Both the position numbers and the translations under genes were made by a program. A DNA stretch of 64,000 nt from assembly GCA_018666775.1 (NCBI GenBank), contig JABIXC010000011.1, positions 12,881 to 76,880 on the forward strand, given 5' to 3'. The stretch comes from Rhodospirillales bacterium (GTDB lineage Bacteria; Pseudomonadota; Alphaproteobacteria; SMXQ01). The notes below the pieces were generated by a model. It had not been told where the DNA came from. It did not search any database and was given only the letters and a program-made list of their open reading frames with translations. Within the stretch, counting starts at the first letter, position 1, and each line of letters starts with the position of its first letter. Of the stretch, positions 44,563 through 62,474 are shown in pieces.

Positions 44563-44970
44563 TTAAGACTTTTCCGGGCCTAAGGCTTCGGTGACAAACC
44601 GTGCAAGGGCTTTCAGGGGAACCGGCTTTTCGATCACGGCAAAGATGCTGGCGTCTTCCTGATGCGCCTTATAGATATATTCGGGATACCCAGACATCAA
44701 GATCACCTTGGGCTGGTAATCCAGCTTGCTGACCAGCCGAGAAACGTGAATACCGTCAAGCCCGGGCATTTTCATATCCATCACAACCACTGCAGGACGG
44801 GTATTCTTGATTTCATGGAAAGCCGCAAAGCCATTATCAGCAACAATCACATCAATACCGCGCCGGGTAAGAAACTCCGTGATCTCACCTTGCTGTAAGG
44901 GATCATCATCAACCACCAAAACCTTGGTGCTGACGGCTCTGCTTTCCCCGCTGGTTTCCATATTTATCAT
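44563..44970 (-). CDS. single-domain response regulator (receiver)
   Basis: VLVVDDDP, VVVMDMKMPGLDG and EKP motifs, immediately downstream of the histidine kinase. Confidence 0.85.
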   Translation of the reverse strand: MINMETSGESRAVSTKVLVVDDDPLQQGEITEFLTRRGIDVIVADNGFAAFHEIKNTRPAVVVMDMKMPGLDGIHVSRLVSKLDYQPKVILMSGYPEYIYKAHQEDASIFAVIEKPVPLKALARFVTEALGPEKS

Positions 44971-45019
44971 TTTTCTTGCCGCCTAAAGTTTAAATTGGGG
45001 TATCAAACACAGCTTTCGC

Positions 45020-46582: not shown

Positions 46583-46586
46583 AAAA

Positions 46587-47666
46587 CTACTTTAAAAGGT
46601 CTTTGATTGATCGGTAAAGCTTCCTTGCATCCATAAGCGCCATGGCTGATTTTCCTGTTAATTTGGAATAACGGCTGACTCTATAATGTTTTTCTCGCAA
46701 TTCTTCCGCTTTCGGGTCCGTCGCAAATTGCAAATGGGCTTTTTCGATCGCCCGGACCATATCAGGGGCCATATCACCCCGGACAAGAACCAGAGACCGA
46801 ATGACCGGTTGCGACGTGAATAAAATCCGCAAATCCTTCTTAAAGCGAAGCGGCGTTTGATTTTGCCGATCCCAATCCAGATTTGACACAGCCCCCCCAT
46901 CAACACGGCCACGGGCAACCCAGGCTGAAACATTTTTTTCATCCCCAGCAAACACATATCCAATCCGCCCTGCGGGCACCGGATCTCTGGCGTTGGCAAG
47001 AGCAACCATTTGCAATCCTTGTTCGCGCAATTTGGCCATGGGGAGTAAAAAGCTGGTTGTCGAGCCAGGGTCCTCAAACACAAGCCGCTTACCTTTCAAA
47101 TCGGCAAGCGTTCCTATGGTGCTCATACGGGAAACAACGAATATGGAATTATAACTGGCCTTTCCCCCACGCCATTCGTGCAAAAGAATTTTGGCACCCG
47201 TTTGGGCCTCTAACGAAAGCGCCAAAAAAACGCTCTCGGTGATGAGGTCAACACGCCCGGTGCGCAATAGATTTTTCATTTCCGCACCATTGCGCGTCAC
47301 AATAACCCTGCTCGCCCGAATGCCCTGATGCTTTAACAATGGCACAATCCACCTGGCCGCTGCCTCAAGACGAGGGATAACCCGTCGTGCCCGACCAGAA
47401 ACCCGGCCAATAATAAATGTCTGGCTTCGGGGAATGGCTTCGACACCCTGTTCAGGATGATCCAGAATTTGTTGTGCCAAAATTTGCTGTGTAGGGAATT
47501 GGGAAACAGAGAATGGAGCTTCTTTCTGCTGGCCTAGCTGCTGGCCTAGCTGCTGGCCTAGCTGCTGGCCTAGCTGCTGGCCTGGCGCGGCAAACGCCTC
47601 ATGGACGAGCACGCCGCCCAACAGAGGGAAAAACAGAACAATAATGCCAAGCAACCTGCCGAACAT
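46587..47666 (-). CDS. PhnD/SsuA-like periplasmic solute-binding protein, likely co-sensor for the adjacent kinase, with an N-terminal (QQLG)n linker
   Basis: Signal peptide MFGRLLGIIVLFFPLLGG, then AAPGQQLGQQLGQQLGQQLGQQ, then a PBP type-2 fold. It is separated from the kinase gene by only 4 bp. The longer ORF beginning at 47798 is probably a start-codon artefact. Confidence 0.65.
   Translation of the reverse strand: MFGRLLGIIVLFFPLLGGVLVHEAFAAPGQQLGQQLGQQLGQQLGQQKEAPFSVSQFPTQQILAQQILDHPEQGVEAIPRSQTFIIGRVSGRARRVIPRLEAAARWIVPLLKHQGIRASRVIVTRNGAEMKNLLRTGRVDLITESVFLALSLEAQTGAKILLHEWRGGKASYNSIFVVSRMSTIGTLADLKGKRLVFEDPGSTTSFLLPMAKLREQGLQMVALANARDPVPAGRIGYVFAGDEKNVSAWVARGRVDGGAVSNLDWDRQNQTPLRFKKDLRILFTSQPVIRSLVLVRGDMAPDMVRAIEKAHLQFATDPKAEELREKHYRVSRYSKLTGKSAMALMDARKLYRSIKDLLK
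47526..47586 (-). repeat. coding 12-bp tandem repeat (CTGCTGGCCTAG on the plus strand, about 4.5 units) encoding (QQLG)n
   Basis: Read directly in the sequence. Confidence 0.85.
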
Positions 47667-47894
47667 ATCTGCCGCATCCTTTCTGGCCTTGTGGTCAACA
47701 AATCCCACGACAATTCTGACCCCGGTTTTGCCTGTCTTTTCAACACTACGGCCGAGACCAAACCTCCAGACAACCATGTCCCTTGGAACTATGGCCACCC
47801 TAGGTTACAGTAACAACCTAAAAAATGTTTGAATCCTTCTGCCCAAACAAGGGCAACACCCAACTGCCACAGAGGCAACCATGAGAGGCCCAAC

Positions 47895-49365: not shown

Positions 49366-50145
49366 TTAGCAGCTATCACACCGCTTGCGCGCCGCAACAA
49401 CCAATTGTCGGAGGGTCGCTAAATCTACAAATCCGGGCATCATCACGTCGCCAATAATGAATGCGGGCGTGCCCGTTATGCCCAACCGTTCAGCCAGCAT
49501 TTTGCTCTCACCAATCACGTGATCAATACGCGGGTCTATCATATCTGCACGCAACCGGGGAACATCCATCCCAAGTGAACGCGCCATTCCCATGACAGTG
49601 GCATCACTAAATTCGCCCCGGTGCCCCATGAGTTTTTCATGCATTTTCTGATATTTTCCCTGAGCAACCGATGCGATCGCAGCACGCGCAGCGAAAACCG
49701 AAGGCGGTCCCAAAATGGGAAATTCCTTGAACACCACCCGAATATTGGGATCAGATTTCAACAAGGCAAGAACCGGTGCCAACGACCGTTTGCAATAGGG
49801 ACAGCGGTAATCAAAAAATTCGACGATTGTAACATCGCCCTTTGGGTTGCCTAGAACGGGCAAGCCGCGGCCTTCACGGATCAATTTCTTGTGGGCCGTC
49901 ATGATTTGCACACGCTGTGCATTCATCGCCGCATCACGGTGCTGTTCCAGTGCCTGGATGGCATCTGTAATCATGGTCGGGTTCGCCAAAATGGCACCGC
50001 GCACCCGTTGCCCAAAATGATTGTCCGGAATATTTCCAGAATTTGGCGCATTTGAGGGCAGCGTTAAGGGCACCATTACCAAAGCCCCAACGACCACAAC
50101 CACCAAAACAGCGACCAGCGCCACAAACCGTGCCTTCATAAACAA
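49366..50145 (-). CDS. DsbA-family thiol:disulfide oxidoreductase (membrane-anchored)
   Basis: N-terminal transmembrane helix and a CPYC active site within a thioredoxin fold. Confidence 0.8.
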   Translation of the reverse strand: MFMKARFVALVAVLVVVVVGALVMVPLTLPSNAPNSGNIPDNHFGQRVRGAILANPTMITDAIQALEQHRDAAMNAQRVQIMTAHKKLIREGRGLPVLGNPKGDVTIVEFFDYRCPYCKRSLAPVLALLKSDPNIRVVFKEFPILGPPSVFAARAAIASVAQGKYQKMHEKLMGHRGEFSDATVMGMARSLGMDVPRLRADMIDPRIDHVIGESKMLAERLGITGTPAFIIGDVMMPGFVDLATLRQLVVAARKRCDSC

Positions 50146-50247
50146 CCCCTAACCCAATAAACAAAGAATTTTTAAGCACTCAGAAAACGCAGTATAACAT
50201 GGTGATACTTTTATTGATCAGCTATTCAGTGCCAGAGAGGGAGCCTC

Positions 50248-51348
50248 ATGAAAATTGCCGAAATGCACATTGATCCGTGCAGCCTGTCCAAGGAAGACCC
50301 GACATGGCGGTTTGCTCTTGCCGCCAATCCCATGACGGAAGGCTGGGCCGTTTCTATCACGGCCGAAGACGGCACCACAGGCTATGGCTACGCATCATCC
50401 ATGCCCCATTACGGCGCACCCCTGGCTTCGGTAAAAGGCAATCTTGAGGGGTTTTCCGAAATTTTGATCGGCCATGATTCCAGGCGGATTGCAGAGATTA
50501 TGACCGCCTTGGACCACAAGGTGGTCGGCAACAATCAGGCCAAGGCGGCCATTGATTGTGCCCTTCACGATCTTTTGGCGCGCCGCCTTGGGGTGCCGCT
50601 TTGTGACTTGTTCGGCGGTGCATGCCGCGAAGATTTTCCATCCCTTCGTATTCTTGCCATCAAAAGCCCAAAAGATATGGCCGCAAGTGCCAGAACCCTG
50701 ATGGACAAGGGCGTGCGCCACTTCAAAATCAAGGTCCATGGCGATGTCGAAGAAGATGTTGCAAGGGTTGGGGCCATTCGCGAAGAAGTGGGCAAAGATG
50801 CCTTTCTCACCATTGATGCCAATCAGTCCTACACCCCGAAAAATGCCATCCGGGCCATCAACCGCATGGCCGATTTCGGAATTGATCTGGCCGAACAGCC
50901 CGTCCCGGCCCGGGATCTGGAAGGCCTGAAAATGGTAACCCAATCGGTTTCGGTTCCAATCGAGGCGGATGAAGCAGCCGATTCTCTCGACCAAGTCATG
51001 GCTCTGGTGCGCATGCGCGCCGTTGATGCCATCAGCCTTAAAATCACCAAATTGGGTGGCTTGCGCAACACCATCGCTGCGGCGCGCATCTGTGAAGCGG
51101 GCAACGTGCGTTACCGCATCGGCGCCCATGTCGGATCACGGCTGATTGCCGCCCATGCCATGCACATGGCGGCCACCTTGCCCGGCATCTGGTATGCCTG
51201 TGAATTAACGGAATTTGATCGCCTGCTTGATGATCCATTTGAAGGCATCGAAGTCGATAACGGCACCCTGCACCTAACCGATGCACCGGGTTGTGGCGTC
51301 AGCCCACGCAGTGACAGCGCCATTGCCCTCGCCCATCAGGCGGGCTGA
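50248..51348 (+). CDS. enolase-superfamily enzyme (mandelate racemase / muconate-lactonizing enzyme family)
   Basis: KIKVHG...LTIDANQSY and AEQP motifs with the MR/MLE barrel metal ligands. Confidence 0.8.
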   Translation: MKIAEMHIDPCSLSKEDPTWRFALAANPMTEGWAVSITAEDGTTGYGYASSMPHYGAPLASVKGNLEGFSEILIGHDSRRIAEIMTALDHKVVGNNQAKAAIDCALHDLLARRLGVPLCDLFGGACREDFPSLRILAIKSPKDMAASARTLMDKGVRHFKIKVHGDVEEDVARVGAIREEVGKDAFLTIDANQSYTPKNAIRAINRMADFGIDLAEQPVPARDLEGLKMVTQSVSVPIEADEAADSLDQVMALVRMRAVDAISLKITKLGGLRNTIAAARICEAGNVRYRIGAHVGSRLIAAHAMHMAATLPGIWYACELTEFDRLLDDPFEGIEVDNGTLHLTDAPGCGVSPRSDSAIALAHQAG

Positions 51349-51353
51349 TAAAA

Positions 51354-53483
51354 ATGTCTAGGGGTAACAAGCGCCCCCGTGCCATGGATGCCCTGATGGC
51401 GCCCCGTTCGGTTGCCGTGGTCGGCGCATCAGACAAAGCCAATGTCGGCGGGCGCATTTATCGCAACATGTTGGGTCGGGGGTTTTCTGGCCCCCTTTAT
51501 CCGGTGAACCCAAATTACAAACGCGTGGGCGGGCAGCCCTGCTGGGCCGATATTGATAGCTTGCCCGAAATCCCAGATTGCGTGGCCATCGCCGTGCCGG
51601 TTCATGGGGTGTTTGAGCCTTTGGAGGCTGCCGCCCGCAAAGGCGTGCGCGCCGCCGTGGTCATGGCAGAAGGGTTTAATGATGCAGGCACCCCTGAGGG
51701 GCGCGCCCGAACCGCGCGCCTGAAAAAGCTCGCCGTCAAATATGACATGGCCATATCGGGTCCTAATTCCATGGGCATCGTCAGCCTTAATCGAAACTTT
51801 GCCACGGCCTTTACCAATCTGCCCGATGGCTTGATCCCGGGGGCTGTTTCGGTGGTATCCCAATCGGGCGGATTGCTCAATGCCACAATCGAACTTGGCC
51901 ATAACCGATCCATCGGGTTCAACCACCTGATATCGGCAGGCAATGAAGCCATCGTCAACAGTGCCGATTACATCACCTGGCTGGCCGATGATTCCAAAAC
52001 CAAAGTCATCATCAACATCGTTGAAGGCGTGGTTGATGGCAGGCGTTACGCCGCCGCCCTTCGCTATGCCAACACCAAAAAACCGGTGGTGGTTTTAAAA
52101 CTGGGGCGCACCGATGCGGGCCGCCGGGCCGCCATTGCTCATACCGGCAGCCTGTCTGGAGATCAGGCCGCCTGGGACGCGATGATGGAAACCACTGGGG
52201 CCATATCGGTGGAAAGCGTTGACCAGTTGATTGAAACGGCAAACCTGTTTTCAAAACTTAAGCCCCCCAAAGGGGACCGGGTATTTATCTTTTCAGTCTC
52301 GGGCGGGGCCACGGTATTGGCCGGTGATCTGGCCAGAAAAGCGGGGCTCCGATTGCCGCCGCTTTCGGAAAAAACCAGCCGGGCATTGGGCAAAATTCTT
52401 GGCGTTGACCGTAAATTTCAAAATCCCATGGATGTGGTTGGTGCGCCCCGGCTGGTGCGCGACGACAACCTCACGCGCTGTCTTGATGTTTTGGCAAAAG
52501 ACACCGCTTTTGATGCCATCGCCCTGGTTATGGTGGTGCAACGCGACACCTCTGCCAGCCACAAGATTTTGCACGAACAATTTCACACCAAAACACCAAC
52601 GATAAAAAAACCGGTGATTATGGTTTCCGAAATGGCATGGACCCCGGCATTAAGGCCCGCCCCCGGGGGGCCAGCAGTCGCCGCCACCCTGGATGACGGT
52701 TTGCTGGCCATTCGCCATTTGGTGGATTATGGCGCACACAAAAAGCCTAAAGCGCCCGCGCGCGCGCGCCGGACGATTGACCTGAATTTGGTACAATCTG
52801 GCCCCCTCACAGAACCCGAAAGCGCCGGGCTTTTGGCGGAAAAAGCGAACCTGCCCTTCGCCCGTTGGGAATATGTCAAAACACCCGCTGACGCCATCAA
52901 AGCAGCAAAAAAGATGGGCTTTCCGGTTGCCCTGAAAGGGGTTGCACGCGGATTGGTCCACAAAACTGAAGCCCATGGGGTTCATCTTGACCTTCAAACC
53001 GGGGCTGGCGTTAAACAAGCCGCCATTAATATCGCCCGCGCCGTCAAACGCCACGCACCCAAAGCCCAGTGGGAAGGCTTCATGGTCCAAAAAATGATTG
53101 AAGCCCCCGCTGGCAGTGTCGAGATGATTTTAGGCGCGCGATTTGATCCACAATTTGGCCCCCTGTTGGTGATCGGTGCGGGTGGAAAATTCGCAGAATT
53201 ATTCGACGATAGCCAAACCATGCTGGCCCCTATCACGGCGTCTCAGGCACGCGCAGCACTTAGCCGCCTTAAAGTCGACCGGCTGCTGCGGGGGTTCCGG
53301 GGAAGCCCCGCACTGGATCGGGCGGCATTGATCAAAACAATGGTGAATTTTTCACGGTTTATTGCTGCCACCGAAGGCCAAATTCTCGAAATCGACCTCA
53401 ACCCCGTGATCGTTTTGCCGAAAATGGGCAAAAAAAGCGGCGTGGTCATTGTCGATGCACTCGTCGTCCCCAAAAGTCGCTAG
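51354..53483 (+). CDS. ADP-forming acyl-CoA synthetase (fused CoA-binding, succinyl-CoA-synthetase-like and ATP-grasp domains)
   Basis: A 709 aa protein with an N-terminal RSVAVVGAS CoA-binding Rossmann motif and a C-terminal ATP-grasp domain. Confidence 0.85.
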   Translation: MSRGNKRPRAMDALMAPRSVAVVGASDKANVGGRIYRNMLGRGFSGPLYPVNPNYKRVGGQPCWADIDSLPEIPDCVAIAVPVHGVFEPLEAAARKGVRAAVVMAEGFNDAGTPEGRARTARLKKLAVKYDMAISGPNSMGIVSLNRNFATAFTNLPDGLIPGAVSVVSQSGGLLNATIELGHNRSIGFNHLISAGNEAIVNSADYITWLADDSKTKVIINIVEGVVDGRRYAAALRYANTKKPVVVLKLGRTDAGRRAAIAHTGSLSGDQAAWDAMMETTGAISVESVDQLIETANLFSKLKPPKGDRVFIFSVSGGATVLAGDLARKAGLRLPPLSEKTSRALGKILGVDRKFQNPMDVVGAPRLVRDDNLTRCLDVLAKDTAFDAIALVMVVQRDTSASHKILHEQFHTKTPTIKKPVIMVSEMAWTPALRPAPGGPAVAATLDDGLLAIRHLVDYGAHKKPKAPARARRTIDLNLVQSGPLTEPESAGLLAEKANLPFARWEYVKTPADAIKAAKKMGFPVALKGVARGLVHKTEAHGVHLDLQTGAGVKQAAINIARAVKRHAPKAQWEGFMVQKMIEAPAGSVEMILGARFDPQFGPLLVIGAGGKFAELFDDSQTMLAPITASQARAALSRLKVDRLLRGFRGSPALDRAALIKTMVNFSRFIAATEGQILEIDLNPVIVLPKMGKKSGVVIVDALVVPKSR

Positions 53484-53512
53484 AATGACACCAAATCTGG
53501 GAGGAAAAAACC

Positions 53513-54028
53513 ATGACGGATTTGCCAAAAGCACCTAAAAAATCAGACCCTATCCCTTGGGACGGGGATCACGATGCAAAACCCAGCTTTTTTAAAATGA
53601 AGGCGCAATTGCTTGATGGGGGCAACACGGAAACGCCGCTCGCCATCGGTGATCATCTTTGGCTCAAGATCAAGGTCTATGCCAAAGGCGGCGAAAACCA
53701 GCTTCATGCCCACCCCCACCAAGACCATTCATTTATCGTTCTTGATGGGCGCGCCTGTTTCCACGGGCCTCGGGATGAACAAAAGGAACTGGGGAAGGGT
53801 GAGGGGATTTTCCTGCCCAAGGGCAGTTTTTACTGGTTTGAAACCATCAGTGAAGAACCATTGGTTTTGCTTCGCGTCGGTGCTACCGAAGCCGATGTCG
53901 CGAGCCAAGACACCAAACACCCAGACACACGCATCATGCCCGATGGCAGCTGGCAGGTCCGTCGCGGACGGAGCGACACCTTTGTGTCAAAAGACATCGA
54001 TTATCGTGATGGGGAATTTTACGAATAA
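53513..54028 (+). CDS. cupin-domain protein
   Basis: LHAHPHQDHSFIVLDGRA...GEGIFLPKGSFYWFE, a two-motif cupin signature. Confidence 0.7.
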   Translation: MTDLPKAPKKSDPIPWDGDHDAKPSFFKMKAQLLDGGNTETPLAIGDHLWLKIKVYAKGGENQLHAHPHQDHSFIVLDGRACFHGPRDEQKELGKGEGIFLPKGSFYWFETISEEPLVLLRVGATEADVASQDTKHPDTRIMPDGSWQVRRGRSDTFVSKDIDYRDGEFYE

Positions 54029-54037
54029 AGAAAAAAA

Positions 54038-54077
54038 TTGCGTGCGCGAAAGCGATTAATCGCCTGCGCGCACGCAA
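54038..54077. terminator. nested 40-bp palindrome (11-bp outer arms TTGCGTGCGCG / CGCGCACGCAA enclosing a 12-bp GCGATTAATCGC palindrome) between convergent genes; likely a bidirectional terminator
   Basis: Read directly. It is flanked by an A7 run and AAAAT. Confidence 0.45.
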
Positions 54078-54082
54078 AATAC

Positions 54083-54892
54083 TCAGTGTTCGGTGATGTC
54101 GAGCCAGGTGCCGTCGGGATCGCACATCTGGTATTCACCGGTTGCCCATTGGCGGAAAAAACCGGCGCGAACGTCGGCTTCTTTTGCACCGCCCAGGTTC
54201 ACAGGGGCCAAATATTGGTTGGCACCGGTTGCGTCTTTCACGTCTTGTTTGAGCTGTTCAATGCTTTCAACCTTCAGGCCAATGTGATCGGGGCCGGGCC
54301 GTTTGATGACCATGCCTTCGAGCACGCCAATGGACCACGGCATCAAGGCCAAGGTCACACGACCATCGGTCAATTCGACCGAGCCGTTATCGGGTTGTTT
54401 GTTGGAAAGCTTCAATTCAAACACGTCTTGATAAAAATCAGCGACCCTTTGAACATTCGGAGTGCGGATCGCAAATTTGTTAAGATAGCGATCCTGATTC
54501 CAGCTTTCCTTTGCCGATTCGGCATACATGTTGGAACGCTTGTCGTCCTTTTTCTGGGCAAGATCGAAGATATTACAATCAGGATCATTACCGCTATAGG
54601 CCGCAAAAGGCCGGGTCGAAGGCCGCTTGACCAGATCGGAATCTGGCCATTTTTTCTGGATGCGCGCCAAAACTTCTTCGACATCATCGACGACAAACCC
54701 AAAATGATCGAGCCCGCCTGAACAGCCATCGCGTTTTGGGTTGATGTTGATGCCGGCATAACCGTCACTACAAACGACCCCGTGAAATGGACGGTGTGTC
54801 CCGGTTTTAAGGCCGAATACGGCTTCATAGAACCGGCCAACCATGGGGTAATTACTGCTGGCCATGGCCATATGATTGATAGATGCAAACAT
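54083..54892 (-). CDS. two-domain VOC family protein (glyoxalase / extradiol-dioxygenase fold)
   Basis: 269 aa with two beta-alpha-beta-beta-beta modules (YEAVFGLK, YQDVFELK). Confidence 0.7.
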   Translation of the reverse strand: MFASINHMAMASSNYPMVGRFYEAVFGLKTGTHRPFHGVVCSDGYAGININPKRDGCSGGLDHFGFVVDDVEEVLARIQKKWPDSDLVKRPSTRPFAAYSGNDPDCNIFDLAQKKDDKRSNMYAESAKESWNQDRYLNKFAIRTPNVQRVADFYQDVFELKLSNKQPDNGSVELTDGRVTLALMPWSIGVLEGMVIKRPGPDHIGLKVESIEQLKQDVKDATGANQYLAPVNLGGAKEADVRAGFFRQWATGEYQMCDPDGTWLDITEH

Positions 54893-54936
54893 ATTTTTAT
54901 CTCCCTAAAATAAGGTCTCCGCCTCTTTGAAAAAAA

Positions 54937-55989
54937 CTAGATGCCGTAGAGCGCTTTGGCATTGGCGTTGAGAATTTTCTCTGCCACCTCTGCCGACACT
55001 TTGCCGTCATCTTTCAATTTGCGCAGAGCTTCGATCTCAGCCGAGGTATCGGCATGGCCGTAATCCGTGCCGACCACCAATTGGCCATCGCCTGCGTATT
55101 TCAGCACATATTCCAGATCATCTGTCACCTGACAGGCGACAAACATGTTGTTATCGGCCATGGCGGTATCAGACAGTCTTTTGCCTTTGCGCTTGAACCG
55201 GATCGCAAGATCATTCAGCGCATAGGGAATCCACTGTGAACTAACCTCAACAAAGCCCCAGCGCAATTTCGGGAACATCCCAGGCACACCCTTCATCAAC
55301 AAGGAATGGAAGGCGCTGACCACGGGCAATTTTGAACGTCCAAAGCCTGCTTCGGATGCGTAGATATCGCGCACACCGAATGAATTGTTTCCGGAATGGA
55401 AACAAATCGGCATATCCAGTTCTTGGGCCTTTTCGTACATCGGATAAAAATAAGGATCATCCAGACGGCGTTCGCATTCAAGACCACGGATAAAGATTCC
55501 GACGGCGCCATTTTCCTTGCCAAATTCCAGTTCTTCCATGGTTTTATCCATGGACATAAGCGGTGGCATCACGACCCATTTAAGGCGGTCCGGTGCCTTG
55601 CTCCAGATATCTGCCAACCACCGATTATATGATTTGCAAATGGCCGCCTCGGCCAACGCGTTCTGGGTCCAGGCCCGCAAAAAAACCGTGGGATAAAGAA
55701 CCTGAACATCAATGTTGAGCTCGTCCATGTGATCGAGGCGAATTTTAACATCAACCATCTCGCGGGAATCTTTGGTCGTGTTATGGCCGACATTGCCTTC
55801 TTTTGGCTGGATGCGGCCATCAATGGCCCAAAATTCCTTTTGAATGTGTTTGCCTTCGTTATCCAGTTGGCCCGCATCTTCATTCTTGTGAAGGATCACC
55901 TGTGGCTTCAGGTGTTCATATTCTGGGTCCATATAATCAAAGGTTCTTTCACACTCGACAACATGAGCATCGGAATCGATCGCTCCCAT
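54937..55989 (-). CDS. amidohydrolase-2 family protein (PF04909), paralog C
   Basis: IDSDAHVVE, MDELNIDVQVLYPTVFLR and VGTDYGHADTSAEI. About 50% identical to paralogs A and D. Confidence 0.85.
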   Translation of the reverse strand: MGAIDSDAHVVECERTFDYMDPEYEHLKPQVILHKNEDAGQLDNEGKHIQKEFWAIDGRIQPKEGNVGHNTTKDSREMVDVKIRLDHMDELNIDVQVLYPTVFLRAWTQNALAEAAICKSYNRWLADIWSKAPDRLKWVVMPPLMSMDKTMEELEFGKENGAVGIFIRGLECERRLDDPYFYPMYEKAQELDMPICFHSGNNSFGVRDIYASEAGFGRSKLPVVSAFHSLLMKGVPGMFPKLRWGFVEVSSQWIPYALNDLAIRFKRKGKRLSDTAMADNNMFVACQVTDDLEYVLKYAGDGQLVVGTDYGHADTSAEIEALRKLKDDGKVSAEVAEKILNANAKALYGI

Positions 55990-56201
55990 AGGGTTCTCCT
56001 TGTACGCTTTGTTTGTACTTGATCAGATGGGGCCATTTTACTTCGCTTTCTAATGGATTGGAAGGGGTCTTGCGCACAAGACCCAAAAAATGAGCATTTT
56101 AGCCAGTATTGCCTGCCCGGTCTTTGGGCGATACATTGGAAACAATCCGCAACAATGCGGGGAATACATCACAAGAACGATTTTCACAGGAACCACCCCC
56201 C

Positions 56202-57347
56202 ATGACTGCTGCCCTTGATGACATCACCATTTTAGAATTCGCCTCATACGTATCGGGGCCATATGCCGGTATGTTGCTGGGGGATCTTGGCGCAGAAATC
56301 ATCAAGATCGAAGACAACAAATCCGGCGATTCCTTCCGCGGTTGGGGTGCCGCTGATTATTCCGCCACCTTTGGGTCCGTTAATCGCAACAAGAAAAGCA
56401 TCATTTTAGACCTTAAATCCGAAGAAGGCCGGGCCGCCGCACTGGCTTTGGCCGAAACCGCCGATGTGGTGATTGAAAATTTCCGCCCCGGCGCCATGGA
56501 TCGTTTGGGGCTTGGCTATGATGCCTTGGCTGCCATTAATCCACGGCTGATTTATTGTTCCATCACCGGCTTTGGCCGCACCGGGCCGTATGCTGATCGC
56601 CCGGGATACGACACCGTGGGTCAAGCCATGGGTGGGTTGCTGTCCGTGCTGACCGATCTTGAAAAACCTCAGCCCATGGGCATTTCCCTATCCGATCACC
56701 TGACCGGCATCATGGCCACCTATGGCATTTTGGGCGCGTTAATGGCGCGCACGAAAACCGGCAAGGGCCAGCGCGTTGAAACATCGCTTTTGTCTTCGAC
56801 CCTTGCCTTTTTGGGTGAAAATGCCGCACGGTATTTCGAAGAAGGGAATGTTCCGGCCCGCAAGACCCGCACCGAAACAGCCCAAGTGTATGCCTTTGTC
56901 GACAGCGAGGAAAAACCCTTCGTCGTGCATCTATCATCGCCCCCTAAATTCTGGAAGGGCCTGTGCGATGTTGCCGGTCACCCGGAATGGGTTGAGGATG
57001 AACGGTTCAAGGACAAGGCTGCACGGCGTAAATCATACGATATCCTCCATGCCGGGTTTCAAGACATCTTCAAGGCCAAACCCCGCGACCATTGGCTGGA
57101 TGCCTTGCGCAAAGCCGATGTGCCATCGGCCCCCATTTACACCCTGGACGAAGCCCTGGCGGATCCACAAGTGCAACACCTTGATATGGTGACCGAGCTG
57201 GATCATCCCAAAGTGGGGAAGGTCAAATTGCTGACGGGGGCTGTAAAGTTTTCGGACACACCGGTGGAAATCAAAACCCCGGCACCGATGCATGGCCAAC
57301 ACACTGCTGAAATTCTTGCCCGCCTGAAAAACAGGGAGACAAAATGA
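56202..57347 (+). CDS. family III CoA-transferase (CaiB/BaiF)
   Basis: ILEFASYVSGPYAGMLLGDLGAEIIKIE N-terminal signature. The stop overlaps the start of the next gene. Confidence 0.85.
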   Translation: MTAALDDITILEFASYVSGPYAGMLLGDLGAEIIKIEDNKSGDSFRGWGAADYSATFGSVNRNKKSIILDLKSEEGRAAALALAETADVVIENFRPGAMDRLGLGYDALAAINPRLIYCSITGFGRTGPYADRPGYDTVGQAMGGLLSVLTDLEKPQPMGISLSDHLTGIMATYGILGALMARTKTGKGQRVETSLLSSTLAFLGENAARYFEEGNVPARKTRTETAQVYAFVDSEEKPFVVHLSSPPKFWKGLCDVAGHPEWVEDERFKDKAARRKSYDILHAGFQDIFKAKPRDHWLDALRKADVPSAPIYTLDEALADPQVQHLDMVTELDHPKVGKVKLLTGAVKFSDTPVEIKTPAPMHGQHTAEILARLKNRETK

Positions 57348-58537
57348 ACACCCCCATCGCCAATCCTGCCTTGCGGGATAAATATGCCGTCGTCGGCACC
57401 GGGGTATCACAGCTCGGCAAGGTGCCAGAGCAAAGCGCCCTTGGCCTGACCGAAGACGCCTGTGCCAATGCCCTTATTGATGCCGGGCTGAGCGCCAAAG
57501 ACATCGATGGTCTGTTGATCCGGGGACCCGATGACATTTACACCTTTCATCAAGTGGTCGGCGAACGGCTTGGCATTAATGCCAGCTTTTCCACCACCAC
57601 GGCCAATGGCGGTGCCAGCCAGATCCTGTCCGTCATCATGGCGGTCATGGCCATTGATGCAGGCCTGGCCACCACGGTCTTGTGCGGGTATGGCCGCAAT
57701 GCCTGGTCACGGTCGCATGCCAATGAAACCACCAAACTGCGGTCATCAACCCGGTCTGAAGAAATGGATTCGTCCGAATTTGGCCCCGAATACGGGCTTT
57801 ACGGTGCCCCCGCCATGCATGCCTTCGGGGCCCAGCGCCACATGCATGAATTTGGCACCACCCGCGAACAGTTTGGCGCCATATCATTGGCCTTTCGCGA
57901 ACACGCCATGCGCAACCCGGTGGCCCAGATGCGCGACAAACCGTTATCCATGGAAGATTATCTGGCCGCCCGCATGATCGTCGATCCGTTCTGTCTGCTT
58001 GATTGCAGCCTGCGATCCGATGCGGCAGGCGCAGTCATTGTCACGTCAGCTGAGCGGGCCAAAGATATGAAACAAACCCCTGTGTTGATCAAGGGCTTTG
58101 GCACCCACAATAATTTGCAAGGCTGGTTTGCGGGCGACAACATGATCCGCACCGCCGCCGGGCCATCGGGCAAAACGGCCTATGCCATGGCCGGCCTTTC
58201 CCCCAGCGATATATCCTGTGCCCAGATTTATGACTGCTTCACCTACATGGTTTTGGCCCAGCTAGAAGATTATGGCTTCTGTGAAAAGGGTGCCGGCGGG
58301 GCATTTGTTGAATCGGGCGCATTGGCCCTGAACGGTGCCTTGCCCACCAACACCTCTGGTGGCCAATTGTCCGAAGCCCATGCCGAAGGCATGTTGCAAA
58401 TCGTTGAAGGCGTGCGCCAATTACAAGGTATTTATGGCCCCGATCGACAGGTCAAAAATGCCGAAACCTGCCTTGTATCGGGCCATGGTGGCAACACTGT
58501 GTGCCATTCAACCCTGATTTTGGGGGTCGCATCATGA
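57344..58537 (+). CDS. thiolase-fold protein (SCP-x / lipid-transfer-like thiolase, a DUF35 partner)
   Basis: A 397 aa thiolase-like protein with a C-terminal GHGGN motif. It is translationally coupled to the OB-fold gene. Confidence 0.8.
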   Translation: MNTPIANPALRDKYAVVGTGVSQLGKVPEQSALGLTEDACANALIDAGLSAKDIDGLLIRGPDDIYTFHQVVGERLGINASFSTTTANGGASQILSVIMAVMAIDAGLATTVLCGYGRNAWSRSHANETTKLRSSTRSEEMDSSEFGPEYGLYGAPAMHAFGAQRHMHEFGTTREQFGAISLAFREHAMRNPVAQMRDKPLSMEDYLAARMIVDPFCLLDCSLRSDAAGAVIVTSAERAKDMKQTPVLIKGFGTHNNLQGWFAGDNMIRTAAGPSGKTAYAMAGLSPSDISCAQIYDCFTYMVLAQLEDYGFCEKGAGGAFVESGALALNGALPTNTSGGQLSEAHAEGMLQIVEGVRQLQGIYGPDRQVKNAETCLVSGHGGNTVCHSTLILGVAS

Positions 58538-58941
58538 CCGAATACACCAAACCCCTGCCCCGCCCATCGACAGAAACGAAGCCGTTTTGGGATGGCGCAA
58601 AAGCGCATCAGTTTTTGATCCAGAAATGCAATGATTGTGGGAAATTCTGGTTCCCCCCCTCTACCCGCTGCATCCATTGCTTGTCGGAAAACCATGGCTG
58701 GGTCGAAGTATCGGGAAAGGGCCGCGTGTTTTCCTTCGTCACCTATCACCGCATGTATCACAAGGGCTGGAAAGATGACCTGCCCTACGTTGTTGCTGTG
58801 ATTGAACTGGAAGAAGGGCCAAGGCTGTTGTCCAACATCACCAACTGCGCCCCCGAAGACGTCAAATGCGATATGGCCGTGAAGGTCGTGTTTGACGATG
58901 TCACCGAAGACACCACCTTGCCAAAATTCAGCCCGGTATAA
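58534..58941 (+). CDS. Zn-ribbon / OB-fold protein (DUF35 family)
   Basis: A CNDCGKFWFPPSTRCIHC rubredoxin-like ribbon followed by an OB fold. Confidence 0.75.
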   Translation: MTEYTKPLPRPSTETKPFWDGAKAHQFLIQKCNDCGKFWFPPSTRCIHCLSENHGWVEVSGKGRVFSFVTYHRMYHKGWKDDLPYVVAVIELEEGPRLLSNITNCAPEDVKCDMAVKVVFDDVTEDTTLPKFSPV

Positions 58942-58949
58942 CGCGCCGT

Positions 58950-59936
58950 TTATTTGCCGTTGGAATCGGCGTTCATCTCGGCCAGATCGTCGCGATGGGA
59001 CACCCAGCTTTGGGCTTCGATAAAGACCCGGGTCACCTGAGGATAGGTGGTTTTGATTTCCTTTTCCATGACACTGATGGCGCTTTCAACCCCATCGGAT
59101 GTAATGCCGCCCAGAAAATCGAGGCTGATGTTCACCAAAACATCCTTGGGCCCCATATGCATGGTCAGGACTTCGTTGATGGAAAGGATGCCTTTTTGTT
59201 GGACCAGAATGGATCGAATGCCATTGACGACTTCCACGCTGGCCGCTTCGCCCACCAACAATCCCTTGCTTTCATAGGCGAGTAAAATTGCCGTCCCGGC
59301 CAAAATCACACCAATGACCACCGATGCCACCCCATCAAGGATCGGCAGATCAAAATATTGTGCCGCGCCAATCCCGACAAAGGCCGCAAACAGGCCCAAC
59401 ATGGCTGCGGAATCTTCGAATAAAACGGTAAAGATTGTTGGGTCTTTGGAATGGCGCACTTCTTCGAACCAACCACGCCTACCTTTGACCCGGCCAAATT
59501 CACGGACCGCGATCAACCAGGCTGCACCTTCAAACACCATGGCAAACCCAAGGACGATGTAGTTCACTTGTGCATTCACGATCGGTTGAGGATGCAAAAT
59601 TTTGCCGACCCCTTCATAAATGGAAACCCCGGCGCCCAAGGCAAAGACCAGGATTGCCACCACGAAGGTCCAGAAATAAAGTTCCATGCCATAGCCAAAG
59701 GGGTGGCCTTCATCGGCCGGGCGGGCGGCGGCACGGATGCCATAGAGCAGCAGCACCTGATTGCCCGTATCCACAACAGAGTGAACTGCTTCGGACAGCA
59801 TGGCCGAAGAGCCTGTATAAAAAGCGGCCACAAATTTGGTGACGGCAATGACCGAATTACCAAAAAGGGCCGCATAGATTACTTTTTTAGATGCTGGTGA
59901 TGCCATAATTCGCTCAAAGCCTAGCAGGGCAGTCAT
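58950..59936 (-). CDS. cation diffusion facilitator family transporter
   Basis: Six transmembrane helices with HSVVDTGNQ metal-site residues and a cytoplasmic C-terminal domain. Confidence 0.85.
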   Translation of the reverse strand: MTALLGFERIMASPASKKVIYAALFGNSVIAVTKFVAAFYTGSSAMLSEAVHSVVDTGNQVLLLYGIRAAARPADEGHPFGYGMELYFWTFVVAILVFALGAGVSIYEGVGKILHPQPIVNAQVNYIVLGFAMVFEGAAWLIAVREFGRVKGRRGWFEEVRHSKDPTIFTVLFEDSAAMLGLFAAFVGIGAAQYFDLPILDGVASVVIGVILAGTAILLAYESKGLLVGEAASVEVVNGIRSILVQQKGILSINEVLTMHMGPKDVLVNISLDFLGGITSDGVESAISVMEKEIKTTYPQVTRVFIEAQSWVSHRDDLAEMNADSNGK

Positions 59937-59978
59937 TGGACATAAAGAAAATTTAAAATCTGTGAAAATTAAACCGGG

Positions 59979-61223
59979 TCAGGAATGCTCCGCTTCTAGG
60001 GCGGCCGTCATGGTGGATCGGCGTGAAAGGGTGCTGAACCACATAACAAGGCAGATGCCCCCCGCCACCGCAAAAGTGAGCCGAAGCCCAAGACATTCAG
60101 CAAGAAGCCCGGTGCCAAGGGCACCAAGGGCCGGGGTGCCGCGATAGATCAGGGTATAGAGCCCCATCACCCGCCCCCGTTTTGAATCGTCCACCGCATA
60201 TTGCACCAATGCCTGGGTGCCCGTAGACATGGCATTGAGGGAAAACCCTGAAAATACGGCAAAAATAATGGCCACCCATAAGTAATTGGTGGCAACAAGG
60301 CCCAAGGTTGAAAGGCTGAGTCCTAAGAATCCAAAAAGCACCATTGATGTCAAACCACTGACGCGCCCGCGCAGGGCAATCCAGGTGGCGCTCATGGTAG
60401 CACCTACCCCCATGCCTGATGTCAACCATGCCAAGCCCACGGCACCACTATCAAACACGGCACCAGCGAAGCCCGGCAGCATGTCCTGAACCGGGCGGAT
60501 AAAAACCGAAATCAATGTCATAAAAAACAAAATGGGGCCGATGCCTGCATGGTTTCGCACATAAGAAAAGCTTTCGCCGACATCGCGCAAAATATTGCGA
60601 CCGGCCTTCTTTTCTCGCACCGGCGGCTCAAGATCCATAAAAAACATGGACCCCAGAAAAATCAAATTACCAACCACATTTGCAGCAAAGGTGCCGCCAA
60701 CCCCCACCTGCAAGATAACGATCCCGGCGATTGCCGGCCCAATGAAACGCGATGCATTGAACAGGGCCGAATCTACGGCAACGGCGGTGGCAAATTCCGC
60801 TCTTGGCACGGTTGCAGGCACAATGGCATGACGCGCCGTGGATGCCAGGGTATGGGTCAACCCCAGAAACAGGGTCAGGCCAAACAGGATTCCAATGTTC
60901 ATCCAGCCAGCAAACAGAAATACCGCCAGCGCCAAGGCGTGAAGGACGGATAAAACCTGGGTAATTTTTTGCAAGGTCAGCGGGATATAGCGATCTGTCA
61001 TGGCACCGGCAATGGGTGCCAATAGCAGCATGGGCATCAGGTCAGCCGCCGCAATGACGCCAAGCCATGTTGGCGATTTGGTCATTTCCCATGCCAACCA
61101 GCCAACCCCCACCCGCTGCATCCAGATGGTGATCAGGTTCGGGGTCATGCCCCCCATATAGAGCGCATAATTTCGGTGGGCAAAAACCCGGGTGATCGGC
61201 GTGAACCAACTGGAAGCGGCCAT
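59979..61223 (-). CDS. MFS transporter
   Basis: A 414 aa protein with 12 predicted transmembrane helices and the MFS motif between TM2 and TM3. Confidence 0.85.
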   Translation of the reverse strand: MAASSWFTPITRVFAHRNYALYMGGMTPNLITIWMQRVGVGWLAWEMTKSPTWLGVIAAADLMPMLLLAPIAGAMTDRYIPLTLQKITQVLSVLHALALAVFLFAGWMNIGILFGLTLFLGLTHTLASTARHAIVPATVPRAEFATAVAVDSALFNASRFIGPAIAGIVILQVGVGGTFAANVVGNLIFLGSMFFMDLEPPVREKKAGRNILRDVGESFSYVRNHAGIGPILFFMTLISVFIRPVQDMLPGFAGAVFDSGAVGLAWLTSGMGVGATMSATWIALRGRVSGLTSMVLFGFLGLSLSTLGLVATNYLWVAIIFAVFSGFSLNAMSTGTQALVQYAVDDSKRGRVMGLYTLIYRGTPALGALGTGLLAECLGLRLTFAVAGGICLVMWFSTLSRRSTMTAALEAEHS

Positions 61224-61384: not shown

Positions 61385-62437
61385 ATGGGCTGCGTAGATG
61401 CAGACGCACACGTTATTGAATCGCCATTGACCTGGGATTTCATAGCCGAAGAAGACAAAGCACACACCCCCTTGATGGTCGTCCAGACAGAAGGGCGTGA
61501 GGTCAAGAGCAACGAAGGCGGGACGTCCAAGGAATACTGGCTGATGGACAACCGTTTCCACGCCAAAGACAAGAACGTTGGCTCTGATACATCAATCGAA
61601 TCCCGCGAACTCAGCGATATCGGCGCACGCATTGCGCATATGGATGAATTGGGCATTGATATTCAGGTCTTATATCCCACGCTATTTCTGCGTCCCGCTG
61701 TTCGCACGGCCGCCGCTGAATTGGCCGTGACCAAAGGCTATAACCGCTGGCTTGCCAGCATTTGGAAACATGCCCCAAAGCGTCTACCCTGGGTCGCCAT
61801 GCCACCCTTGATGTCACCCGATAAAATTCGCGACGAATTGACGTGGGCCAAAGACAATGGGGCCTGCGGCGTTTTCATGCGCGGCCTTGAATGCGACCGC
61901 ACCGTGGCGGATCCCTTTTTCTTTCCGCTGTATGAAGCGGCCAGTGAACTGGATTTAGCCATCTGTTTTCATTCGGGAAACAATTCCATTATCCACCATG
62001 ATTTTTTCCTGGAAGACACCACCTTCACCAAATTCAAACTGGCCGTGGTGGGGGCATTTCATTCCCTTTTGGAAAAAGACATCCCCGGAAAATTCCCCGA
62101 CCTGCGTTGGGGCTTTGTTGAAATCAGCGCCCAGTGGGTGCCCTATGTCTGTCATGATCTGCGCTATCGTTTCATGCGCCTTGGCCGTCGTATGCCCGAA
62201 AATCTTTTGGAAGCAAACAAAATTTTTGTCGCCTGCGAAGTGACCGATGACATTCCCTATATCCTGAAATATGCAGGCGATGATCAATTGATGGTCGGCA
62301 CCGATTATGGACATCACGACCCATCGGCAGAAATCAACGCCTTCACCATTATGCGCAACCGCGAAGATGTGGCGCCCGATGTAATGACCAAAATTCTGGA
62401 AACCAATGCACGGACGCTTTACGGGCTTGACGGATAA
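61385..62437 (+). CDS. amidohydrolase-2 family protein (PF04909), paralog D
   Basis: VDADAHVIESPLT, MDELGIDIQVLYPTLFLR and VGTDYGHHDPSAEI. Confidence 0.85.
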   Translation: MGCVDADAHVIESPLTWDFIAEEDKAHTPLMVVQTEGREVKSNEGGTSKEYWLMDNRFHAKDKNVGSDTSIESRELSDIGARIAHMDELGIDIQVLYPTLFLRPAVRTAAAELAVTKGYNRWLASIWKHAPKRLPWVAMPPLMSPDKIRDELTWAKDNGACGVFMRGLECDRTVADPFFFPLYEAASELDLAICFHSGNNSIIHHDFFLEDTTFTKFKLAVVGAFHSLLEKDIPGKFPDLRWGFVEISAQWVPYVCHDLRYRFMRLGRRMPENLLEANKIFVACEVTDDIPYILKYAGDDQLMVGTDYGHHDPSAEINAFTIMRNREDVAPDVMTKILETNARTLYGLDG

Positions 62438-62474
62438 AAACACAAATCAAAAATGAAACACCGGGGAGAAAACC

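Follow-up and report, generated by a model that had tools for sequence, protein, structure and literature searches.

We describe here a cluster of eight genes at positions 50248-58941 of a 64,000-nucleotide stretch of DNA from a Rhodospirillales bacterium (assembly GCA_018666775.1, contig JABIXC010000011.1; hereafter, the window). They encode an enolase-superfamily protein, an ADP-forming acyl-CoA synthetase (ACS), a small cupin, a VOC protein, a member of the Amidohydro_2 family, a family III CoA-transferase (CaiB), a thiolase-fold protein and a DUF35 protein. We propose, with a probability of roughly 40%, that the eight genes constitute one catabolic unit for a carboxylic acid, in which the acid would be hydroxylated by an enzyme resembling the amidohydrolase-related dinuclear oxygenases (AROs), converted to a CoA ester and cleaved by a retro-aldol reaction. 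This proposal shares with the other leading reading discussed below the premise that a 3-hydroxy acid would be made, activated with CoA and split by retro-aldol cleavage. The genes are organized in three transcription units, A (enolase-ACS-cupin, plus strand), B (Amidohydro_2-VOC, minus strand) and C (CaiB-'thiolase'-DUF35, plus strand), and not in the two operons facing each other that were seen in a first-pass annotation of this DNA, since the enolase and CaiB operons both lie on the plus strand.

The units are linked across genomes. Using an alignment of Amidohydro_2 homologs, we collected 79 loci (L-numbers below) from species-representative genomes, which are metagenome-assembled Alphaproteobacteria save for a few Gemmatimonas and Binatia contigs; the window proteins were compared with these loci by tblastn, and all locus open reading frames (ORFs) were then clustered. 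An Amidohydro_2 ortholog at least 70% identical to the window protein is present in 24 loci, and the CaiB gene adjoins it in divergent orientation in 20 of them, the other four comprising two that end at a contig edge and two without CaiB. The aldolase (that is, 'thiolase') and then the DUF35 gene follow downstream of CaiB wherever the contig extends far enough. Within about 10 kb lie genes for the enolase (55-78% identity) and the cupin (65-73%), and often one for the ACS (48-64%), in an arrangement that varies: an ABC importer of the Fbp/Thi/PhnS type (a binding protein, a fused double permease and an ATPase with a TOBE domain) is inserted in operon A between the ACS or enolase gene and the cupin gene in L009-L011, L020, L058 and L094; in L092 it is the enolase gene that diverges from CaiB, with the Amidohydro_2 gene at a distance of about 10 kb; and in L006/L015, which are one contig, the place of the enolase is taken by a different enolase with 26% identity. 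In the distant genomes L021-L029, L058, L092, L094 and L050 the flanks differ and the gene order is reshuffled; the ARO-like gene, CaiB-aldolase-DUF35, the enolase and the cupin are nevertheless retained within about 10 kb. More distant Amidohydro_2 paralogs (63-67% identity) have genes that adjoin and overlap an enolase gene, and downstream of these pairs come genes for a binding protein and an ATPase of the same type as above. Because the cluster genes persist in distant genomes despite changed flanks and rearrangement, they are likely to be functionally linked. The exception is the VOC gene, which was previously counted as a cluster member: its position next to the Amidohydro_2 gene is not conserved, and only relatives with 45-51% identity, 6-10 kb away, are found in L023, L024, L028 and L029. 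The genes listed above, without VOC, are therefore regarded as one conserved functional unit.

The cleavage step is suggested by the last two genes of operon C. The 'thiolase' gene (57344-58537, plus strand) encodes a Cys-less protein of 397 amino acids with the SCP-x/thiolase fold. The nucleophilic Cys of the archaeal thiolase 6esq ('aaCASG') aligns with Gly ('anGGASq') of the window protein, and the HDCF motif of this SCP-2 thiolase is replaced by YDCF; among 120 homologs 69-100% identical to the window protein, YDCF is found in 119 and NGGAS in at least 112. The nearest structures are the uncharacterized 4u4e, then Ltp2 (6ok1, 1.7e-57) and Sal (9myr, 1.3e-55), the last two being about equally distant. 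In the bile-acid aldolase CtSal, retro-aldol cleavage relies on Tyr and Cys of the motif Y-D-C-Y as catalytic base and acid, respectively, and Gly at the thiolase Cys position makes thiolysis impossible; Ltp2 employs Y-D-H-F plus Tyr344, and the trypanosomal protein SLP has YDCF (PMC12329534, 2025). The DUF35 gene (58534-58941, plus strand) is translationally coupled to the aldolase gene by an ATGA overlap, and its product is a stand-alone protein of 135 amino acids with a zinc ribbon and an OB fold (Pfam zf-ChsH2 and OB_ChsH2_C), the ribbon C-x2-C-x10-C-x2-C being of the C4 type canonical for DUF35 (PMC12329534). As the nucleophilic Cys is replaced by Gly, thiolysis by the window protein is predicted to be excluded. 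The combination of Gly at the nucleophile position with a Y-D-[CH]-[FY] motif, typical of the Sal/Ltp2 group, is thus accompanied by a gene for a zinc-ribbon DUF35 partner; given the Gly, YDCF and the coupled C4 DUF35, the pair is best described as a predicted Sal/Ltp2-type 3-hydroxyacyl-CoA aldolase with a free-standing DUF35 partner. The pair had been expected to perform retro-aldol or thiolytic cleavage, and only the retro-aldol half of this expectation survives.

The characterized systems Sal-ShyDUF35 of Comamonas testosteroni and Ltp2-ChsH2DUF35 of Thermomonospora curvata share with the window pair the thiolase/SCP-x fold, Gly in place of the nucleophilic Cys, a catalytic motif of the same kind (Y-D-C-F in the window protein, Y-D-C-Y in CtSal, Y-D-H-F in Ltp2), a DUF35 partner with zinc ribbon and OB fold, and the predicted retro-aldol cleavage of a 3-hydroxyacyl-CoA. 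They differ at the position of Tyr344 of Ltp2 and Gln352 of CtSal, which is His in the window protein. In addition, the DUF35 domain of the steroid enzymes is the tail of a MaoC hydratase, whereas here it is free-standing, and, unlike those systems, the window cluster has no hydratase, no acyl-CoA dehydrogenase and no steroid genes nearby; according to Pfam and gene calls, no MaoC, ECH or ACAD gene is present within 49366-61223. A paralogous CaiB-aldolase-DUF35 module with a convergent ACS gene was observed on a JGI 3300072015 contig, next to genes for a UbiD decarboxylase, a molybdenum hydroxylase, a bicupin, VOC proteins and a flavin monooxygenase. As this module has no ARO-like gene, the cleavage module seems to be reused with other upstream enzymes.

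The candidate hydroxylase is the Amidohydro_2 protein (54937-55989, minus strand, 350 amino acids; PF04909, 63.9 bits), which is remote in sequence from every characterized PF04909 enzyme. Its family profile retrieves from PDB first 8sm9, SfbO (8sm6), 4dzi, PtmU3 and 8sm7 (1e-11 to 7e-8, the first four at 8e-10 or better), all of them AROs (PMC10811679, PMC13154177), and next the ACMSD decarboxylases (2e-7). Two motifs define AROs, D-x-H on strand beta1 in the N-terminal part and the loop D-x-P-H-x-[D/E] in the C-terminal part; both are reported to be absent from the characterized PF04909 hydrolases, hydratases and decarboxylases of the fold (PMC13154177, 2026). In the window protein, D7-A-H9 lies within the predicted strand E3-10 (beta1) and is invariant in 45 homologs, H198 is invariant and E248 near-invariant in the family, and the C-terminal segment is D309-Y-G-H312-A-D314, of which D309-Y-G-H312-x-D314 is invariant. 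HMMER aligns H198, E248 and DYGHAD onto the His, Glu and DYPHWD of SfbO and 8sm9, and the first two columns also onto conserved His and Glu of 4dzi and PtmU3. By the ligand count of PMC10811679, H198 (beta5) and E248 (beta6, bridging) would be metal ligands. An AlphaFold2 (AF2) model (pLDDT 87.3) places the residues of the ligand set at the ends of strands 1, 5, 6 and 8, and its top Foldseek matches include 4dzi, PtmU3, SfbO, DitZ and AibH1H2. The ACMSD-type H-x-H/E-x-H on beta1 is not found; instead, D-x-H is accompanied by an extra His and Asp after beta8. Judging from the alignments, all side chains expected for two metals appear to be present, and the protein looks like an ARO-like, putative dinuclear oxygenase, nearer to AROs than to hydrolases or decarboxylases. 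The resemblance to SfbO, AibH1H2, PtmU3 and DitZ thus extends over the PF04909 TIM barrel, D-x-H on beta1, His on beta5, Glu on beta6, Asp, His and Asp in the post-beta8 loop, and the best sequence and structure matches; the catabolic setting resembles that of AibH1H2, and the difference lies in the motif D-Y-G-H-A-D as against the published D-x-P-H-x-[D/E].

This variant motif is widespread. A search of 1.84 billion representative proteins gave 247 clusters at E<=1e-30, and nearly all of the approximately 75 full-length sequences among the best 150 of the 247 have D-[ATCS]-H together with D-[YF]-[GSTA]-H-x-D, Pro at the motif position occurring in just two of the most distant sequences among these 150. 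Such proteins appear to form a sizeable ARO sister clade with Gly, Ser, Thr or Ala in place of Pro, which the published motif filter would miss. AROs were originally discovered through their Rieske ferredoxin neighbors (PMC10811679); such neighbors are typical of the Mn-dependent class only, and the high-potential (diiron) class usually has no adjacent Rieske ferredoxin. None was detected in the window by a six-frame CxH...CxxH scan and tblastn, which would fit the high-potential class, and the non-aromatic gamma-4 residue, Ala313, is also consistent with that class.

Several further observations concern the ARO-like family and its possible partners. VOC proteins fused to a C-terminal Rieske [2Fe-2S] domain (CTH...CPMH) are encoded at L094:12840-13649 and L094:19230-20087, and a fusion gene of this kind is located 1-5 kb from the cluster in L006/L015, L009, L011, L013, L019, L020 and L094 (Rieske Pfam, 30.5 bits). 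The fusions come after a LysR gene, toward the DUF35 end of the related clusters, in the company of further VOC genes, an M24/creatinase-type peptidase and binding proteins; we know of no earlier description of such a fusion. The window contains a second ARO-like Amidohydro_2 gene at 61385-62437 (350 amino acids, 53% identical, with D-A-H and D-Y-G-H-H-D). It begins an operon (61385-63296) in which an SDR gene follows, which would fit an alcohol product of the ARO-like enzyme. This operon continues past the window end at 64000; in L088 (10001-15710) the continuation comprises an aldo-keto reductase, the alpha and beta subunits of a thiamine pyrophosphate-dependent E1 enzyme and a pterin-4a-carbinolamine dehydratase, so that the operon looks like a second module for hydroxylation, oxidation and then cleavage. 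A third PF04909 gene (34490-35560, minus strand, 356 amino acids) lies among housekeeping genes; its product has D-G-H, a conserved Glu ('IVEGEIGW') and D-Y-P-H-P-N, the last being the published ARO motif with Asn in place of the final Asp/Glu. Two tandem ARO-like genes are found downstream of the divergent CaiB junction, in the stretch from CaiB to the matched Amidohydro_2 gene, in L010, L011, L012, L014, L016 and L020, and many genomes have at least three ARO-like paralogs in different contexts, for example on contig CAVTBD010000003.1 (L009, L031, L081).

The first gene of operon A (50248-51348, plus strand) encodes an enolase-superfamily protein of 366 amino acids (Pfam MR_MLE_N and MR_MLE_C) from the MLE subgroup. 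Its residues K160-x-K162, D189, E216, D241 and K264, conserved in 17 orthologs, match the catalytic residues of YkfB, MLE, 1nu5 and 3i4k in alignments, and its beta8 segment 'ATLP...Y.CEL' is shared with the chloromuconate cycloisomerase 1nu5. The best NCBIfam match is muconate/chloromuconate cycloisomerase TIGR02534 (208.8 bits, below the cutoff of 334.95), the top PDB match is the dipeptide epimerase 3jva (1.7e-50), and the protein is about equally similar to dipeptide epimerases and to cycloisomerases, with weak similarity also to MAAL_C, cis-3-hydroxyproline dehydratase and hydroxyproline-betaine epimerase. The ACS (51354-53483, plus strand, 709 amino acids; Pfam CoA_binding, Succ_CoA_lig and ATP-grasp_5) is an ADP-forming (NDP-forming) enzyme with fused alpha and beta parts. 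It is nearest to the archaeal 4-hydroxybutyrate-CoA and 3-hydroxypropionate-CoA ligases, the nearest solved structure being 4-hydroxybutyrate-CoA ligase 8wzu (6.6e-89), and the dimethylsulfoniopropionate (DMSP) lyase DddX (7cm9, 9.5e-64) is a weaker match; it is below all NCBIfam equivalog cutoffs, the acetate, 3-hydroxypropionate and 4-hydroxybutyrate equivalogs being far below. Its 'AHTGSLSG' loop, whose His we take to be the phosphorylated residue, is conserved in 10 orthologs. CaiB (56202-57347, plus strand, 381 amino acids), the first gene product of operon C, is a CaiB/Frc-type family III CoA-transferase (CoA_transf_3, 403.6 bits; the match spans residues 36-399 of the long ORF). Its best NCBIfam matches, the succinate-glutarate, formyl-CoA and succinyl-CoA:mesaconate transferases, are all below cutoff; it resembles dicarboxylate-using transferases, though below every cutoff. 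The segment 'GYDTVGQA', conserved in 15 orthologs, presumably contains the catalytic Asp, by analogy with Frc.

The last gene of operon A encodes the cupin (53513-54028, plus strand, 171 amino acids; Pfam Cupin_2), a member of a narrow family with 113 homolog clusters at E<=1e-5. Residues H65, H67 and H72 are invariant, with His in place of the usual Glu of motif 1 and Y107 in place of the His of motif 2; an AF2 model (pLDDT 87) has generic Foldseek matches, with the Ni-quercetinase 5flh on top. Only in this genome is the Amidohydro_2 gene of operon B followed by one for a two-module VOC (glyoxalase-fold) protein (54083-54892, minus strand, 269 amino acids; Pfam Glyoxalase). A PDB sequence search gave nothing for the VOC protein or the cupin, NCBIfam and PDB searches gave no informative relatives of the VOC protein, and it has no homology beyond the fold with the products of the VOC genes beside related clusters. 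The ring-modifying role suggested earlier for the cupin and VOC folds is conjectural, the matches of both being generic. Two known combinations were considered for these folds and rejected. DMSP degradation was suggested by the cupin, ADP-forming ligase, CaiB and M24 folds, all of which include DMSP lyases; the ACS is nearer to 8wzu than to DddX, and among the generic fold matches of the cupin DddK is far down the ranking. A kynurenine-type pair (3-hydroxyanthranilate dioxygenase plus ACMSD) would combine a cupin with an Amidohydro_2 protein; the cupin has only a generic Pfam match, and the Amidohydro_2 protein has D-x-H, not H-x-H.

From the gene content, the linkage across genomes and the active-site residues, which are observed here, we infer the oxygenase chemistry and the following order of steps. 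The products of operon A would take up and pre-process the carboxylic acid, many relatives adding the Fbp/Thi/PhnS-type importer: the MLE-type enolase would abstract the alpha-proton of the carboxylate, for epimerization, cycloisomerization or elimination, and the ADP-forming ligase would form a CoA ester at the expense of ATP. Operons B and C, which share a divergent control region, would constitute the cleavage module. The ARO-like protein, with its two-metal center and O2, would hydroxylate the carbon beta to the carboxyl or thioester group; the family III CoA-transferase would provide or recycle the CoA ester, with the ATP-dependent ligase priming the cycle or handling another intermediate; and the Cys-less Sal-type aldolase, bound to its DUF35 partner, would split the resulting 3-hydroxyacyl-CoA by retro-aldol reaction, yielding a short acyl-CoA and a carbonyl compound. 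The proposed route dispenses with an acyl-CoA dehydrogenase, an enoyl-CoA hydratase and a 3-hydroxyacyl-CoA dehydrogenase, and this explains why the cluster contains genes for none of the three.

As for the substrate, which like the reductant we infer, the related clusters give some clues. Those of L021-L029 additionally encode a weakly PcaD-like alpha/beta hydrolase, a second Amidohydro_2 protein similar to 4-sulfomuconolactone hydrolase (210.9 bits), a UbiD decarboxylase, a class II aldolase-fold protein, pairs of VOC proteins, an MFS transporter and a TctC-like binding protein; in a Gemmatimonas metagenome-assembled genome, the cupin gene and its binding-protein gene adjoin pcaHG-pcaIJ-pcaD-pcaC. 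The JGI 3300072015 module described above, with its UbiD and molybdenum hydroxylase neighbors, points in the same direction. These neighbors are compatible with an aromatic or ring-derived acid and in keeping with the earlier suggestion of an aromatic or alicyclic acid degraded through a CoA thioester, but are not decisive. Equally indecisive are the clues toward amino-acid derivatives: the nearest matches of the conserved binding protein are the PhnS-type 2-aminoethylphosphonate binders, though far below cutoff, and distant ARO-like/enolase clusters carry genes for ornithine-cyclodeaminase-like, DHDPS-like and M19 dipeptidase proteins.

The other leading reading, which we regard as possible, reaches the 3-hydroxy acid without a redox step. 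The Amidohydro_2 protein would here be a lactonase or hydratase (as are LigI, LigJ and 4-sulfomuconolactone hydrolase) upstream of the same cleavage module. The MLE-like enolase would cycloisomerize a muconate-like unsaturated dicarboxylate, or the cupin or enolase would make an unsaturated acid or lactone; CaiB would then activate the 3-hydroxy acid and the Sal-type aldolase would cleave it. The whole would amount to an altered lower pathway in which non-orthologous parts process an aromatic ring-fission product. The TIGR02534 match of the enolase and its 'Y.CEL' segment, the adjacent and overlapping enolase and Amidohydro_2 genes of distant relatives, the sulfomuconolactone-hydrolase-like, PcaD-like and UbiD proteins of related clusters together with their class II aldolase-fold protein, which is related to a decarboxylase, and the pca neighbors in Gemmatimonas all agree with this route, which, moreover, requires no reductant, in keeping with the missing redox partners in the window. 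However, it does not account for the complete set of ARO ligands, which characterized hydrolases, hydratases and decarboxylases reportedly lack (PMC13154177), and leaves the conserved second metal site unexplained; in addition, the enolase is under the cycloisomerase cutoff and about as similar to dipeptide epimerases, and the window contains no ring-cleaving dioxygenase of a recognized type. An amino-acid-derived zwitterion (a D- or N-modified amino acid, imino acid, betaine or amino-dicarboxylate) is an unlikely substrate. It would be imported by the polyamine/aminoethylphosphonate-type ABC system, epimerized or deaminated by the enolase and hydroxylated or oxidatively dealkylated by the ARO-like enzyme, with CoA esters formed thereafter, by analogy with the methylaspartate/mesaconate route (CaiB-type transferase, hydration, acyl-CoA lyase). 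The match of the enolase to 3jva and its weaker similarities, the PhnS-like binding protein, the amino-acid-related genes of distant clusters, the M24/creatinase-type peptidase in L006 and L094, the resemblance of CaiB to succinyl-CoA:mesaconate transferase (232.5 bits) and the dealkylation of amines by SfbO via N-alpha hydroxylation (PMC10811679, PMC13154177) point this way, but all the similarities are weak and under family cutoffs, and the cluster has no aminotransferase, deaminase or other amine-handling gene. Moreover, an alignment with YkfB indicates that the D-x-D motif of dipeptide epimerases, presumably their ammonium-binding motif, is not conserved in the window enolase.

Two further explanations fare worse. 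That the three units are unrelated neighbors, syntenic merely through the kinship of the compared genomes, is improbable. The flanking DsbA, CDF and MFS_3 genes, which are unrelated to the cluster, are likewise syntenic in its closest relatives L012, L014 and L016, and the comparison genomes are all uncultured Alphaproteobacteria or Gemmatimonas; but the distant genomes listed above keep the cluster genes together despite new flanks and order, and the divergent junction of the ARO-like gene and CaiB is retained in most orthologous loci. As the linkage persists though rearranged, chance juxtaposition is unlikely, and the initial assumption that the operons belong together holds, with CaiB divergent beside the Amidohydro_2 gene and the enolase, cupin and usually ACS genes nearby. 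Still harder to sustain is a classical thiolytic pathway, in which the thiolase/DUF35 pair would cleave a 3-oxoacyl-CoA (3-oxoadipyl-CoA or a benzoylsuccinyl-CoA-like compound) in the manner of BbsAB. A family III CoA-transferase encoded with thiolase-fold and DUF35 proteins does recall the bbs operon of benzylsuccinate beta-oxidation (BbsEF, BbsAB), and there are weak NCBIfam matches to BbsB (84.6 bits) and BbsA (44 bits). BbsB, however, is a true thiolase; the window protein and at least 112 of its 120 homologs have Gly for the nucleophilic Cys, with YDCF for HDCF, and such a protein is reported to be incapable of thiolysis (PMC12329534). The dehydrogenase and hydratase genes of bbs are missing from the window cluster, which encodes no dehydrogenase able to yield a 3-oxoacyl-CoA.

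Between the two leading readings, we favor the version with an O2-dependent hydroxylase because of the ligand set, the best matches, the Rieske fusions in relatives and the SDR gene after the window paralog, and also because the characterized AROs introduce hydroxyl groups into small acids, such as 2-aminoisobutyrate in the case of AibH1H2, or at the beta-carbon of a sulfonate in that of SfbO (PMC10811679, PMC13154177). A number of points weigh against it. The strict ARO motif D-x-P-H-x-[D/E] is broken by Gly at the Pro position, and the Foldseek ranking interleaves AROs with ACMSD, so that the fold does not discriminate between them; PF04909 hydratases and lactonases would equally give a 3-hydroxy acid. 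Neither a ferredoxin nor a reductase is encoded in the window cluster, which leaves the electron source of a monooxygenase unexplained, and the Rieske fusion is present in some relatives only and may belong to a separate operon. The known Sal/Ltp2 aldolases all act on steroids and are fed by a MaoC hydratase, which is absent here. The retro-aldol reaction releases an aldehyde or ketone, yet the cluster has no aldehyde dehydrogenase. Finally, common descent alone accounts for part of the synteny between the closest relatives, as the equally syntenic DsbA, CDF and MFS genes demonstrate.

Literature searches gave no described pathway with this combination of genes, and so the first-pass impression that it fits none is upheld. 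The beta-ketoadipate pathway (CatB/PcaB, PcaD, PcaIJ, PcaF) is similar in having an MLE-type enolase, a hydrolase-like step, CoA transfer from a donor thioester and C-C cleavage of the CoA ester formed, and lactonase-like and PcaD-like genes are present in related clusters. In contrast, the window CoA-transferase belongs to family III and PcaIJ to family I, the window cleaving enzyme would be incapable of thiolysis, the enolase is below the cycloisomerase cutoff, and no intradiol dioxygenase or muconolactone isomerase is encoded in the cluster. The methylaspartate-cycle/mesaconate module consists of methylaspartate ammonia-lyase, succinyl-CoA:mesaconate CoA-transferase (Mct), mesaconyl-CoA hydratase and beta-methylmalyl-CoA lyase, and likewise combines an enolase-superfamily enzyme, a family III CoA-transferase, a 3-hydroxyacyl-CoA and an aldol-type cleavage. 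Here, however, the enolase is of the MLE and not the MAL subgroup, the hydratase and lyase would be replaced by unrelated folds, and the score of CaiB against Mct is far from the cutoff of 700 bits. All the proteins are members of known superfamilies, and catabolic clusters without an assigned pathway are nothing unusual; what appears new is that an ARO-like protein is combined with a non-steroid Sal-type aldolase, that DUF35 stands alone and that a large clade is defined by a variant ARO motif.

More generally, we suggest, with considerable doubt, that carboxylic acids are shortened in widespread uncultured Alphaproteobacteria by direct, O2-dependent beta-hydroxylation through a two-metal oxygenase of the ARO sister clade followed by retro-aldol cleavage through a non-steroid Sal-type/DUF35 pair, bypassing the dehydrogenase, hydratase, dehydrogenase and thiolase of beta-oxidation. 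No cultured organism with the cluster was found among the loci or in the homolog and plasmid searches; on plasmids, the Amidohydro_2 protein had one weak match only (29.9% identity, Burkholderia). If true, the proposal would place AROs, few of whose natural substrates are known, in a physiological setting and extend their family beyond its published signature, given the 247 clusters at E<=1e-30 and the variant motif in nearly all full-length sequences among the best 150. It would also add the first Sal/Ltp2-type aldolase working outside steroid degradation, with relevance to the unexplained YDCF thiolase-like proteins such as trypanosomal SLP. The current labels 'acetyl-CoA acetyltransferase' and 'amidohydrolase' would then mislead metabolic reconstructions of these bacteria. 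If the reading fails, this is one more unassigned catabolic cluster.

Other features of the cluster concern its boundaries and expression. The window proteins were scanned against Pfam and NCBIfam, and Pfam corroborates all the protein families named before, at the given coordinates; independent gene calls for the source contig concur with the gene set and coordinates, and indicate ATG 56202 (381 amino acids) and not TTG 56109 as the likeliest start of CaiB, and ATG 58534 (135 amino acids) and not GTG 58501 as that of DUF35. The tight spacing and overlapping stop/start codons noted earlier correspond to a 5-nt gap between the enolase and ACS genes and to two ATGA overlaps, at the CaiB/thiolase (57344-57347) and thiolase/DUF35 (58534-58537) junctions. 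The nested palindrome reported between the blocks is also real: between the convergent cupin and VOC genes, a hairpin at 54038-54077 has fold energies of -26.5 kcal/mol on the plus strand (z = -4.3) and -29.9 on the minus strand (z = -5.6), with 0 of 200 shuffles as stable. As a U-run follows it in the minus-strand transcript only, this intrinsic terminator is mainly that of the Amidohydro_2-VOC unit. Unit B is convergent with A, and divergent from C across a 212-bp control region (55990-56201). This region contains a 20-nt near-palindrome, GGGTCTTGCGCACAAGACCC, at 56065-56084, which overlaps the CTTG element of the window. By inspection, promoter-like -35/-10 elements seem to recur back to back in the orthologous divergent regions, with TTGxCx, about 16 nt and GATAAC or GATACA on the CaiB side, and CTTG, about 17 nt and a TATCAT- or TAACAT-like element on the other; a generic promoter scan gave 8 sites where 8.8 were expected by chance. 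The window cluster has no regulator gene; a LysR gene comes after DUF35 in L006 and L094. The cluster is flanked by a DsbA-like gene on the left and by CDF and MFS_3 transporter genes on the right. The term 'island' used previously is not warranted, because the GC content of the cluster genes (0.50-0.57, against 0.537 for the window) shows no compositional signal of foreign origin or horizontal transfer. Elsewhere in the window, with no link to the cluster found, lie a three-gene unit encoding a response regulator, an sCache_3_2 histidine kinase and a PhnD-like 'Phosphonate-bd' protein (44563-47798, minus strand), and the genes for a fused TAXI-type TRAP transporter (40294-42873, DctM/DUF3394) and an NMT1_3 binding protein (42884-43885).

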